Shown: positions 15,001 to 18,000 of the stretch, piece by piece
How positions within the stretch are numbered: the stretch's first letter is position 1
How the letters are laid out: each line of letters starts with the position of its first letter
Origin: Candidatus Spyradenecus sp.
Lineage (GTDB): Bacteria > Verrucomicrobiota > Verrucomicrobiia > Opitutales > UBA953
NCBI GenBank assembly: GCA_045535075.1
Contig: JAZSKX010000014.1
Span: 192,001-256,000 of the forward strand
Length of the DNA: 64,000 nt
Direction of reading: 5' to 3'
Position numbers: made by a program

Positions 15001-18000
15001 CATTTGATGGTGAGCAGGCGATTGTCCAGTTGGCGTTTCCGGATGTCGGGGCTTGTGACGAACGGCGTTTTGTGTCGGCGCTGACGGCGGGATTGCTCAG
15101 CGGAATGTCGAGTCGGCTTTTTCTCGAGGTTCGGGAAAAGCGCGGCTTGGCGTATTTTATCGGCGCTTCTCGCGGCGGCTCGCCGGAGTTCGGAATGTTT
15201 ACACTTTGCGCGGGAACGGAAAAATCCAAGACCGAGGCCGTTTTTGCGGAAATGCGCAAAGAAATGGATCGCTTGCGGCGGGGAGAAATCTCCGACGATG
15301 AATTACGGGCGACTAAAATGCGTATGTGTATTTCCCGGCGCAGTGCGCGGCAACGAGCGTCCGTTCGTGCGGGAACGGTTTTGCGGGAAAGCCTTTATCA
15401 GATTCCGATCTTGAGTGAGAACGAATTTGAGCGCCGCATAAATGAAGTTTCTCGCGAGGATATTGCCCGATTTGCCCGTGAAATACTTGCGCCTGAAAAG
15501 TCTTTGGCTCTTATTGTCGCTTAGTCGTTATTTACAAAGAACAAAAAAGCGTTCCCGTGATTTCGCGGGAACGCTTTTTTATTTCTAAACTCTAATCTCA
15601 ATTACTCCCATTCGATGGTGCCGATGGGTTTCGGCGTGAGATCGAGCAGAACGCGATTGATGCCTTCGACTTCGTGCGTGATACGGTCGGTGATGCGGTG
15701 CAAGACATCATAGGGAATTTCCTCGATCGTCGCCGTCATCGCATCAACGGTGTTAACGGCGCGAATAATCGCCGGCCAACCTTCATAACGTTTGTTGTCG
15801 CGTACGCCGACGCTTTTGAAATCGGGAACGGCGACAAAGTATTGCCAAACTTTTCCTGCAAGTCCGCATTTGTCAAATTCTTCGCGCAAAATCGCGTCGG
15901 CTTCGCGGAGTGCGTGCAGTCGGTCGCGTGTGATGGCTCCGAGGCAACGCACGCCGAGACCCGGTCCCGGGAACGGTTGGCGGAAGACCATTTCGTCGGG
16001 AAGCCCGAGCGCTTTGCCGACGACGCGGACTTCGTCTTTGTAAAGCAGCTTGAGCGGTTCAACGAGTTCCATTTCCATGTCTTCGGGAAGCCCGCCGACA
16101 TTGTGGTGGGCTTTTACGCCGTGGCTTTCGAGAATGTCCGGATAGATTGTGCCTTGTGCAAGGAATGAAATTCCGGAGAGTTTTCCGGCTTCTTCGTCGA
16201 AAACTTTAATAAATTCGTTGCCGATGATTTTGCGTTTTTTCTCGGGATCGGCTTCGCCGGCGAGCAGGTCAAGAAAACGATCCGTCGCATCAACATAAAT
16301 AAGGTTGGCATCCAAACCGTTGCGAAACACCTCAATGACTTGCTCGCTTTCGCCTTTGCGCATCAGGCCGTGATTGACGTGGACGCAAACGAGTTGCTTG
16401 CCGATTGCTTTAATCAGGAGAGCGGCGACGACTGAGGAGTCAACCCCGCCGGAAAGTGCGAGAAGCACTTTTTTGTCTCCGACTTGTGCGCGAACCTCGC
16501 GCACCTGTTCTTCGATAAACGCGTCTGCCAAAGCAGCCGTCGTGATTCGTGCCACGGATTCGGGACGAACGTTGTTTTGTTGCATCATTTTACTTCCTAG
16601 TGGATTGTTAGAAAATGTACGCGACATCGTAGCAAAAAGAATCCTAAAAATGCAATAAGCTTGCAAAAAAAAATATTTTTCTTAAGCCCGCCCTAAAAGT
16701 TTGTTCGAATCGCTTGTGTTTCGTGCGGGAACGCTCGGAATGTGCGCTTGCGGCGGGAAGGTAAAATCTGTTTCATTAGCACTCAAATGTTTGAAAATCT
16801 GACAGACCGTATGGGACAGGCTTTGCGCAATTTGCGCGGCTTGGGGAAAATTTCCGAATCCAATATTGCCGAAGCGCTTGCGGAAGTGCGCACGGCGCTT
16901 TTGTCCGCTGATGTGCATTTTCGGGTCGCGCGGGAATTCTGCGAACGGGTGAAGGAACAATGCTTGGGGCAGGCGGTTTTGGCATCGGTTTCGCCCGGGC
17001 AAATGGCGATTAAAATTATCCACGATGAATTGGAGCGCCTCCTCGGAGAAAACTCGACTCAATTTTCGAATGTTCGCCCGCTTAAAGTAATGCTCGTCGG
17101 TTTGCACGGAAGCGGGAAAACGACTTCCGCCGCGAAGCTCGCGCGTTTGCTTAAAAACCGGGGAAACTACAAACCGGCTCTCGTCGCATGCGACGTTTAT
17201 CGCCCGGCGGCAATTGATCAACTCGAGCTTCTTGCGGGAACGGTTGGGGCAAAATTTTATTGCGAGCGAGACTCGAAAGACGTTCCCGCGATTGCGGAAA
17301 GCGGCTTAAAATTTGCAACGGAAAACTTTTCGGATCTGATTATTTTCGACACGGCGGGGCGTTTGCAAATTGATGAAAATTTGATTGAGGAAATCAAACG
17401 TCTGCGGGAACGCGTGCGACCGGACGAAGTGCTGCTCGTCGCCGATGCCGCCCTCGGGCAGGAAGCCGTTAACGTTGCAAAACATTTCCACGAAGCCGTC
17501 AATCTGACGGGAATTATCCTGACAAAGCTTGACGGGGACGCGCGCGGCGGTGCAGCGCTTTCGATGAAAGCGATTACGGGTGTTCCGATTAAATTCATGG
17601 GAACCGGAGAAAAGGTGGAAGATTTCGACATTTTCCACGCCGATCGTATGGCTCAACGCATTCTCGGAATGGGGGATGTTGTTTCTCTCGTCGAAAAAGC
17701 GCAGGAAACAATCGACCAAAAAGAAGCCGAACGCATCGCCGCAAAAATGAAAAAGGCGGATTTCGATTTGGAGGATTTTCTTGCACAGCTCCAACAGATG
17801 AAAAAAATGGGTCCGATCGGTAATATCATGAAAATGATGCCGGGAATGAGCGGAATCCAGGTCGGAGAAAAAGAAGAAAAAAAGATGCGCCAAACCGAAG
17901 CGATTATTCAGTCCATGACGAAGCAGGAGCGGGCGCGTCCGGAGATTTTGAACGGTTCCCGCCGTGCGCGTATTGCTAAAGGCTCGGGAACGAAGGTGTC

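Follow-up and report, generated by a model that had tools for sequence, protein, structure and literature searches.

The window analysed is a stretch of 64,000 nucleotides from Candidatus Spyradenecus sp., in which the guaA region shows the following genes and features:

12978..15524, plus strand: putative M16-type peptidase frame of 848 aa, convergent with guaA (ORF list)
15539..15584, minus strand: terminator-like hairpin immediately 3' of the guaA stop, with stem GCGTTCCCG/CGGGAACGC and A and T runs on either side
15602..16588, minus strand: guaA of the short type, predicted to encode a 328-aa stand-alone GMP synthetase with an ATP-pyrophosphatase domain and a dimerisation/XMP-binding domain, without a glutaminase domain
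16589..16741, no strand: divergent intergenic region between guaA and ffh, 153 bp
16593..16598, minus strand: Shine-Dalgarno-like AGGAAG, 4 bases 5' of the ATG at 16588, seen directly in the sequence
16742..18145, plus strand: ffh (signal recognition particle protein), divergent from guaA (ORF list); it served as a marker gene

The guaA frame, 15602-16588 on the minus strand, shows no internal stops and its translation gives 328 aa. Its ATG at 16588 is the equivalent of the Met start in the relatives, where a longer TTG-started frame from 16666 has no counterpart. The 153-bp gap between guaA and ffh shows no remnant of a glutaminase domain and is too small to hold one. No sigma-70-type promoter was found in this gap by a consensus scan, which also missed the obvious terminator hairpin. 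The hairpin 3' of guaA has a folding energy of -27.3 kcal/mol (z -6.4, RNA fold), and its stem pair occurs 65 times genome-wide. In metagenomes, many unrelated contigs match just about 40 bases of this hairpin. Contigs of the X19 metatranscriptome lie at 15653-15844 and 15896-16546 and none lies on the flanks, which is no more than a hint of RNA, given that contigs of RNA libraries do not prove transcription and that the contig holders cover the very gene used to find them. Contigs from two metagenome runs, one of which is possibly the source sample, span the peptidase-like frame (12978-15524), guaA and ffh. Compared with the nine other short-guaA loci of the genus, homology ends within 10 bases upstream and within 65 bases downstream of guaA, so that the neighbours of the gene are not shared within the genus. 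The genomic surroundings of the short guaA vary between species of the genus, and in six genus genomes it is directly behind a purF-like purine gene.

Domain content and conservation of the short GuaA

The short GuaA shows only two Pfam matches, a PP-loop/NAD_synthase-type domain (residues 24-98) and GMP_synt_C (236-327, 115.5 bits). No Pfam GATase domain was found in the chain, which thus does not show the N-terminal class I glutaminase of an EC 6.3.5.2 enzyme. Against TIGR00884 (guaA_Cterm, NCBIfam), the protein reaches 433.8 bits over model positions 2-310 of 310, where the curated equivalog-domain cut-off for the synthetase (ATPPase) half of GMP synthetase is 338.75, and its alignment with NF000848, the model of the two-domain GMP synthase, is confined to positions 187-512 of 512. 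By sequence, it matches the PDB entries 1gpm (E 6.5e-101), 6jp9 (E 5.1e-98) and 2dpl (E 4.5e-93). The AF2 model has a pLDDT of 86.1 and Foldseek TMq values of 0.83-0.87 to 7sbc, 9kpv, 6jp9, 1gpm and 2dpl, and it predicts the ATPPase and dimerisation fold of a GMP synthetase.

The protein keeps the PP-loop SGGVDS, the lid-loop motif HHN and, at its C-terminus, TIEWE, and residues S46-D50, H161, H162 and N163 are invariant. Conservation reaches 90% or more at 72 columns of the synthetase regions of 57 fused GuaA proteins, and 70 of these columns show the same consensus in 88 sequences of the short clade; the C-terminal departures from the fused consensus are Y315L and P322I. The lid loop is nine residues long in 81 of 87 short-clade rows; in 51 of the 57 fused forms it has 14-17. 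The short clade also contains a conserved N-terminal segment, RPExxARITT..ELA.AFIEEQV. Besides the short lid loop, the two C-terminal changes and this segment, no obvious active-site adaptation was found in the protein. Purifying selection on the short guaA is strong (dN/dS 0.02-0.05).

Nitrogen genes and carB paralogues of the genome

The genome searched has 1.95 Mb in 18 contigs and is 99.45% complete. Across it, PF00117 matches only PyrG, HisH, PurL and a DJ-1/PfpI protein; the last, with a weak GATase match (21-22 bits), was rejected as a glutaminase since it is a member of the DJ-1 family (111 bits). A GuaA-type glutaminase was not found in the genome with TIGR00888 (best 18 bits, on PyrG) and CarA, active or inactive, was not found with TIGR01368 (best 19.3 bits, on HisH), while both models give matches in 14 of 14 control genomes. 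Searches of the genome by tblastn gave a best E of 0.44 with the CarA of G014, and only HisH (E 3.8e-4) with the GuaA glutaminase domain of a relative. A separate GuaA-type glutaminase subunit, of the archaeal two-subunit type, was found neither by profile nor by tblastn. GlmS (best 23.4 bits) and GltB (GOGAT) were also not found in the genome, and tblastn found no trp operon in it. The two lineages in which the short form is the only GuaA (S1 and S2) show no TrpG-type matches; they, and in part also G009, are without carA and the canonical carB2 and without gltB. These genomes retain GDH, a type III glutamine synthetase, ArgF, PyrB and an IMP-dehydrogenase-like gene, which here reaches 426 bits, under the curated cut-off of 481.5. 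The survey's finding that GuaA consists of the synthetase half only (PP-loop and GMP_synt_C) with no glutaminase elsewhere in the genome, and that CarA, GlmS and glutamate synthase are absent, was thus confirmed.

The carbamoyl-phosphate synthase gene present, CarB1, encodes a full-length large subunit of 1070 aa (TIGR01369 1353 bits versus 1027; NF003671 1496.8 bits). CarB1 was found in 18 of the 19 genus genomes, alongside carA-carB2 in nine of them, and the carB2 type is the sole carB type in the other four genera of the family. The CarB1 gene has no carA next to it in the flanks read, those of G000 (this genome), G002 and G014. Between the CarB1 proteins of eight CarA-less and seven CarA-bearing genomes there are just nine fixed amino-acid differences, scattered and unclustered. 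By these comparisons CarB1 is a second paralogue, found across the genus, and both lineages are without carA and the canonical carB2; a loss of CarA only, as proposed, was not confirmed. CarB1 would work without a small subunit, on ammonia.

Origin and distribution of the short form

The short GuaA is 93-97% identical in nine other genus genomes. Its identity is 44-46% to the native fused GuaA (513-517 aa, nine genomes of the genus) and 84-90% to 326-aa proteins of gut Clostridia. Among the best 80 genome loci, 79 are outside the genus, at 83-90% identity, and 78 of these carry titles of taxa in the class Clostridia. G014 carries both GuaA forms, at different loci. The short clade has a support of 100 in FastTree (192 rows) and an SH-aLRT of 99 with a stem of 0.57 in IQ-TREE (75 rows), and the ten Spyradenecus short copies are one clade (99/98) within an otherwise Clostridia clade. 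The short clade has its place among bacterial sequences, with a 338-aa form and a Firmicutes protein of the fused type (509 aa) as neighbours, and apart from P0229, the single representative named as archaeal in the trees; the outgroup cluster P0124 contains a protein of Aristaeella hokkaidonensis. All the genomes compared are metagenome bins, except one cluster member. In this genome, tblastn with the native fused GuaA gives only the short gene (42.8% identity), and the native guaA is gone whole, not just its N-terminal half. The flanks of the fused guaA of G013 fall on five different G000 contigs, and with synteny this poor a deletion scar would not show. Within the genus, guaA dS does not track rpoB dS. 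The low identity to the native enzyme, the high identity to the Clostridia proteins and the presence of both forms in G014 argue for a horizontally acquired replacement, not a truncation: on sequence grounds, the short GuaA is a xenologue that replaced the native two-domain enzyme.

The survey's genus counts were reproduced for CarA (nine of 18 other genomes) and corrected for the GuaA N-terminal domain, which is over the cut-off in nine of the 18, the tenth genome counted (G012) showing only a weaker match, on another protein. In the RpoB+RpoC tree, the genomes with only the short form are divided into two clades, each with a support of 100, and one of them is sister (99) to G002 and G013, which have the fused type. 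The ribosomal-operon identities (89, 83 and 72-82%) are consistent with this two-lineage tree, and the Ffh comparison is so in outline; the two-lineage picture draws on these three informational loci, between which G002 and G013 shift place. The CarB1 and short guaA trees, unlike these species markers, put both glutaminase-less lineages together. The nine glutaminase-less genomes share their short-guaA and carB alleles through exchange within the genus.

A GuaA-type glutaminase was not found in the eight other short-only genus genomes. Seven of ten Clostridia carriers, which are bins without a completeness figure, show no TIGR00888 match over the cut-off. In one Clostridia genome, a 212-aa ORF (55 bits to TIGR00888) was rejected, being a Peptidase_C26 protein absent from the other carriers. 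Of the 15 genomes with the short form in other families of the phylum, six lack any further GuaA-like match and nine also have a fused GuaA. Among the best 80 short-form loci, only three show a GATase within 6 kb, in each case as part of a complete fused guaA, and the commonest conserved neighbour of the short guaA, at 19 of 63 loci, encodes a CofE-like ligase, not a glutaminase. In at least two phyla there are near-complete genomes whose only GuaA is the short form, and a glutaminase-less GuaA family is common in gut anaerobes.

The survey had read this GuaA as cut down from the native enzyme: one recent subclade would have removed nothing but carA and the glutaminase part of its own guaA, leaving native ammonia-only enzymes. 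The absences are real and common to the same nine genomes, and the short protein begins at the interdomain linker of the fused enzymes (NF000848 187-512). However, an identity of 44-46% to the fused form of the genus versus 84-90% to the Clostridia proteins, the separate and well supported clades of the two forms, their presence at different loci of G014 and the tblastn result at 42.8% identity all argue against such a deletion, as do the coexistence of CarB1 with carA-carB2 in nine genomes, its position never beside carA in the G000, G002 and G014 flanks, and the division of the nine genomes into two clades, separately supported by RpoB+RpoC, the ribosomal operon and Ffh; we consider this history very improbable. 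That a Clostridia contig or a chimeric assembly was binned into these genomes, which would agree with the high identity to Clostridia proteins and with their being metagenome bins, has next to no probability: guaA lies at 207.6 kb within a 275-kb contig, between genes of genus-typical identity, ten genus genomes have their own diverged copies in one clade, two further metagenome runs (one possibly the source sample) bridge both junctions, and the terminator hairpin belongs to a type that recurs throughout the host genome.

Amino-group donor and comparison with known systems

The short GuaA could still be fed with glutamine in trans, by a glutaminase of another fold or by a moonlighting glutaminase of HisH, PyrG or PurL. 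Two-subunit enzymes associate only transiently (PMC10526850), so that a partner gene need not adjoin; the matches to the ATPPase subunits 6jp9 and 2dpl come close to those of the fused enzymes, the lid loop resembles that of the aligned M. jannaschii subunit in being short, and HisH is present. We regard this as rather unlikely, given the absence of a GuaA-type glutaminase here, in the eight other short-only genomes and in seven of ten Clostridia carriers, the GATase within 6 kb at only three of the best 80 loci, there as part of a complete fused guaA, and the top conserved neighbour, which is the CofE-like ligase (19 of 63 loci) and no glutaminase. It is unlikely, too, and clearly so, that GMP comes from salvage and that the short GuaA has another role, with another substrate or in regulation. 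Its presence beside a normal fused GuaA in G014, in three Clostridia genomes and in nine of the 15 carriers of the phylum suggests a non-redundant role, and the IMPDH-like gene is under its curated cut-off; against this, the protein exceeds the GuaA equivalog-domain cut-off, keeps 70 of the 72 conserved columns, is the sole GuaA-like gene in many near-complete genomes and, in six genus genomes, is encoded directly behind the purF-like gene.

We therefore favour, as probable but short of firm, an intact and selected stand-alone GMP synthetase, derived from Clostridia by transfer, that is the sole GuaA in two lineages and is probably fed with ammonia. The short guaA would have arrived in the PVC-group genus Candidatus Spyradenecus by horizontal transfer from a source lineage near the Oscillospirales/Christensenellales type of gut Clostridia, would then have passed from species to species within the genus as a cassette of one gene, and would have become the sole GuaA in two separate lineages once the native two-domain guaA was lost whole. 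In the GuaA homodimer, XMP would be adenylated at the PP-loop site and free NH3 from the ammonia-rich gut lumen would attack adenyl-XMP directly (EC 6.3.4.1 reaction), without hydrolysis of glutamine or a tunnel for ammonia. Ammonia-dependent catalysis (XMP + ATP + NH3 -> GMP) is the likeliest activity predicted for the short GuaA, ammonia would be its physiological donor, and guanine nucleotides are probably built straight from free ammonia in this cell. The missing carA, carB2 and gltB, together with the kept CarB1, GDH and type III glutamine synthetase, suggest that ammonia is probably the form in which nitrogen enters guanine, carbamoyl phosphate and glutamate; glutamine would still be used by PyrG, PurL, HisH and the PurF-like enzyme. 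Of the switch from glutamine to ammonia put forward in the survey, what stands is that several glutamine modules are absent and that GDH and the type III glutamine synthetase are kept, which fits abundant ammonia; its derivation from a recent deletion of only the glutaminase modules does not. More tentatively, and with the odds somewhat against it, the GuaA cassette may move across phyla and make the glutamine-dependent enzyme dispensable, having spread here with a carB allele, while two lineages independently dismantled the fused GuaA, CarA with CarB2, and GOGAT. If such a transferable ammonia mode is true, the affinity of the enzyme for NH3 would be far better than that of any GMP synthetase studied so far.

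If the family does depend on ammonia, this step is wrongly named glutamine-hydrolyzing GMP synthase in databases and wrongly drawn in the metabolic models of many gut and rumen bacteria. The short GuaA would offer a minimal GMP synthetase from nature in which to study the access of NH3 to adenyl-XMP without a tunnel, and the repeated joint loss of CarA and GOGAT would be the sign of a nitrogen economy in the gut that is based on ammonia. At the level of a clade, an apparent domain loss can be a xenologous replacement.

Literature searches gave no description of a glutaminase-less bacterial GuaA or of a CarA-less CarB, one match to EC 6.3.4.1 being a row of a gap-filling table. PMC10526850, a review of 2023, describes GMP synthetases only as fused (bacteria and eukaryotes) or two-subunit (archaea). 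The ATPPase units take external ammonia in vitro and their activity is independent of the GATase; the Km for NH4+ is 26-174 mM for three enzymes in its table, and glutamine is the preferred substrate and physiological donor (PMC10526850). At the ammonia levels of the gut, a synthetase half without modification might work slowly. The synthetase half of the E. coli (1GPM) and A. baumannii (7SBC) enzymes is homologous throughout to the short GuaA, with 52% identity in the structural alignment, and its catalytic motifs are retained here; the two-domain GuaA differs in its N-terminal class I glutaminase of about 200 residues and in a lid loop 5-8 residues longer. CPS I keeps an inactive glutaminase domain. 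CarB1 resembles it in that it would have to use free ammonia, and differs from it in that no small subunit of any kind is present here. Bacterial CPS is described as a heterodimer or a fusion in PMC6022934, a review of the sources of carbamoyl phosphate. In NadE, of the PP-loop amidating family, stand-alone ammonia-using and glutaminase-fused forms are both natural (compare PMC3376133); the likeness to the short GuaA is an analogy, the enzyme and its glutaminase fold being different. The archaeal ATPPase subunit (M. jannaschii 6JP9, P. horikoshii 2DPL/3A4I) has, like the short GuaA, about 310 aa, a PP-loop domain, a dimerisation domain and a short lid loop, and the folds agree with the short GuaA model at TMt 0.93-0.95. 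The archaeal systems have a separate gene for the glutaminase subunit, whereas none was found here or in most of the carriers tested, and the archaeal subunit alone makes GMP from NH4+ in vitro (PMC10526850).

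The stand-alone GMP synthetase gene and its locus

The genome under study, G000 (1.95 Mb, 18 contigs, 99.45% complete), contains a stand-alone GMP synthetase gene (short guaA) in the window, with the following features:

Window 15602-16588, minus strand: short guaA, an open, stop-free reading of 328 residues.
Minus strand, 4 bases 5' of the short guaA ATG: AGGAAG, by sequence reading.
Window 15539-15584: hairpin 3' of the short guaA stop, folding at -27.3 kcal/mol (z -6.4).

The encoded protein shows a PP-loop-type match (residues 24-98) and GMP_synt_C (236-327), and the Pfam scan of its 328 residues gives no glutaminase domain. 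It reaches 433.8 bits with TIGR00884, the NCBIfam model of the GuaA synthetase half (curated cut-off 338.75), and its alignment to the full-length model NF000848 begins only at model position 187. Among solved structures, it best matches residues 213-525 of GMP synthetase from E. coli (E 6.5e-101) and the ATPPase subunit of M. jannaschii (E 5.1e-98). An AlphaFold2 model with 25 family members as input has a pLDDT of 86.1 and a TMq of 0.83-0.87 to these solved structures; disorder is confined to residues 157-166, the lid loop, and to the five N-terminal residues. Since the gap between the short guaA start and the divergent ffh is only 153 bp, there is no glutaminase remnant 5' of the gene. The terminator-like hairpin after guaA shows the stem pair GCGTTCCCG/CGGGAACGC, which occurs 65 times in the genome (64 elsewhere), and its ~40 bases are the sole match of many unrelated metagenome contigs; the stem pair could mark terminator hairpins of one family spread over the genome, or be a small dispersed repeat.

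Distribution and origin of the short form

The survey's finding took this gene for a GMP synthase cut down to its synthetase half. It is not a truncated native gene: it shows just 44-46% identity to the fused, two-domain GuaA of the genus (513-517 codons), the two forms fall in separate clades, and one genome, G014, has both on separate contigs. The fused form is present in G001, G002, G008, G009, G013-G016 and G018, and the short form, with 93-97% identity to the G000 query, in G003-G007, G010, G011, G017 and G014; this query search across the 19 genus genomes found neither form in G012 (82% complete). With native fused GuaA as tblastn query, the sole match in G000 is the short gene (42.8% identity), and the native guaA is gone entirely from this genome.

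In a large protein database, matches with 93-98% identity are named Opitutales or Verrucomicrobia bacterium, and 326-aa proteins with 89-92% identity are named Firmicutes or Clostridia bacterium by their sources. A scan of a genome collection gives 590 relatives; the best 80 loci comprise one Candidatus Spyradenecus (95%) and 79 outside the genus (83-90%), 78 of which are titled as Clostridia-class taxa, including Acutalibacteraceae, Oscillospiraceae, Christensenellaceae, Ruminococcus and Faecousia. In a FastTree phylogeny of 192 rows, the short clade (89 rows) has a support of 100, and the ten Spyradenecus short copies form one clade (99) within a clade of 87 rows (99) that is otherwise Clostridia; the native fused GuaA of Spyradenecus, nine in number, are on their own branch, distant from the short clade. 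IQ-TREE with 75 rows agrees (Spyradenecus short copies, 98; short clade, SH-aLRT 99, stem 0.57). The closest outgroup cluster includes a protein of Aristaeella hokkaidonensis.

In three of ten Clostridia genomes with the short form (G024-G026; loci L065, L083 and L123), the short gene is immediately preceded, in tandem, by a complete fused guaA of 513-521 codons; some species thus retain both enzyme types next to each other. Among the same ten carriers, which are bins without a completeness figure, seven show no GuaA-type glutaminase, four have CarA over cut-off and five contain a full CarB without CarA. Crude gene calls located short guaA in 63 Clostridia loci (of L064-L142): in 19 of them a gene encoding a 397-aa CofE-like protein (PF01996, 192.5 bits; e.g., L067:4779-5969) is directly upstream on the same strand, and in six of the 63 a putative cysteine-synthase-like gene, by reading, has this position. 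Among 301 sampled genomes from the window's phylum, 15 genomes of two other families have short-frame forms (73-79% identity), and six of the 15 have no second GuaA-like match; further forms are on frames of ~420-470 codons (68-77%).

Lineages of the short-only genomes and probable exchange within the genus

The reduction had been assigned to one subclade. In the tree of the species marker RpoB+RpoC (2674 columns), the nine short-only genomes form two separate clades, with a support of 100 each, and the ribosomal-protein operon and Ffh agree on the split. S1 (G000, G006, G010 and G011) has the fused-type pair G002 and G013 as its sister group (99); S2 (G003, G004, G005, G007 and G017) forms a nested group (100) with G018, G015, G016 and G001, all of the fused type, and with G012, which yielded no GuaA; G014, with both forms, and G009 are deep branches. 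Across the 18.7 kb ribosomal-protein operon, identity to G000 is 89% in S1, 83% in G002/G013, 73-82% in S2 and 67-81% in the rest. The Ffh tree also shows S1 apart from S2, and places G002/G013 elsewhere. RpoB+RpoC and the ribosomal operon place G002 and G013 with S1, but Ffh and CarB1 (the CarB kept in G000) place them with G015/G016, and both genomes look mosaic.

Metabolic genes, unlike informational loci, tie S1 to S2. Synonymous distances (dS) of short guaA from G000 are out of step with those of rpoB: 0.94-1.04 versus 1.14-1.23 in S1, 0.60-0.96 versus 1.55-1.81 in S2, and 0.92 versus 2.7 in G014. Homology between the short guaA loci and that of G000 extends no further than 10 bp 5' and 65 bp 3' of the gene, which shows four different genomic contexts in the genus. 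The carB1 of G000 (C8:119997-123206, outside the window; L028/L034) has 98.9% DNA identity to the G005 copy (dS 0.05) and 96.9% to the G003 copy, with rpoB at ~77% in both pairs; the G000-G005 similarity stops ~220 bp 5' and ~70 bp 3' of the gene, and looks like a recent one-gene cassette transfer between species of the genus. The CarB1 tree unites the alleles of S1 and S2 in a single clade (100/99), contrary to the RpoB+RpoC tree. From three informational loci, we infer that short guaA entered the genus once and was then exchanged between species, and that the native gene was lost independently at least twice.

In six genomes of both lineages (G004, G007, G006, G017, G011 and G010; L010-L015), the gene preceding short guaA is a divergent purF-like one (gap of 38 bp in G004), which shows 95.5 bits with TIGR01134 (cut-off 350) and class II glutaminase-domain matches.

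CarB paralogues, glutaminases and probable ammonia use

The survey's finding also held that CarB had lost only its partner CarA. CarA is indeed absent; however, it was not lost alone, since the canonical carB2 is missing too and the retained CarB1 is a second paralogue. CarB1 is present in 18 of the 19 genus genomes (86-100% identity), and CarB2, ~50-53% identical to it, is confined to the nine CarA-bearing genomes. The carA gene adjoins carB2 in G014 and G002; the CarB1 neighbours in the flanks read are genes other than carA, in G014 a 364-aa frame, putative pyrD by reading. From this distribution, S1, S2 and G009 are without carB2 and carA and kept the second large subunit. In the family's other four genera there is just one CarB, which is of the CarB2 type (48-52% identity) and matched in 29 of 34 sampled genomes, the misses being bins 64-83% complete. 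The nearest extra-genus relatives of CarB1 (70-75%) are named Kiritimatiellia, Lentisphaerota or Opitutaceae.

GltB (glutamate synthase) is found in exactly the nine CarA-bearing genus genomes. In G013 (L230, C14:92000-110000) carB2, carA and gltB (1502 aa) are adjacent. The GltB of G013/G002 is just 52-54% identical to that of the seven other genomes, and gltB therefore has two origins in the genus. TrpG-type matches are missing from all nine short-only genomes (S1 and S2) and confined to the other ten of the genus. The G014 trp operon (L226, C12:20000-31000; putative trpE, trpGD and trpCF by reading) has no tblastn counterpart in the G000 genome, where a TrpB-like gene (46% identity) is the only remnant of the tryptophan genes.

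Profile and tblastn searches bear out the reported absence of the GuaA glutaminase, CarA, GlmS and glutamate synthase. TIGR00888 (GuaA glutaminase) and TIGR01368 (CarA), both over cut-off in 14 of 14 control genomes, give in G000 only sub-threshold matches on PyrG and HisH. With CarA and the GuaA glutaminase domain of G014, the best tblastn match in G000 has an E of 0.44, besides HisH (3.8e-4); since the G014 CarA gave no better match, a 'dead' CarA is likewise absent. Neither GlmS nor GltB was found in the G000 genome. Across the 18 other genus genomes, the count of nine with CarA was reproduced, and the GuaA glutaminase is over cut-off in nine, one fewer than the ten counted earlier. G000 contains GDH, ArgF, PyrB, a full-length CarB, a type III-like glutamine synthetase (741 aa) and a full-length IMP-dehydrogenase-like gene (426 bits, under the 481.5 cut-off).

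The short GuaA probably uses ammonia: a homodimer would adenylate XMP, and free NH3 would then attack the adenyl-XMP intermediate. In the part of PMC10526850 consulted, ATPPase units form GMP from external ammonia in vitro, independently of the glutaminase, but the NH4+ Km values in that passage are 26-174 mM. The short form retains 70 of 72 columns conserved among fused enzymes, and the gene has a dN/dS of 0.02-0.05. Its lid loop has nine residues in 81 of 87 short-clade members versus 14-17 in 51 of 57 fused forms, and the short clade is also marked by Y315L and P322I close to the C-terminus and by a conserved N-terminal segment. Class I glutaminase domains in G000 are those of PyrG, HisH and PurL only, plus a weak match on a DJ-1/PfpI protein. 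Less likely rivals are an unseen glutaminase acting in trans, a role other than GMP synthesis, and an artefact.

In the literature covered, with subscription journals mostly outside its scope, nothing was found that describes a bacterial GuaA naturally devoid of its glutaminase, or a CarB without CarA. Bacterial GMP synthetases are described only as two-domain enzymes in the consulted part of PMC10526850, and bacterial CPS as either heterodimeric or fused in that of a review of carbamoyl-phosphate sources (PMC6022934).
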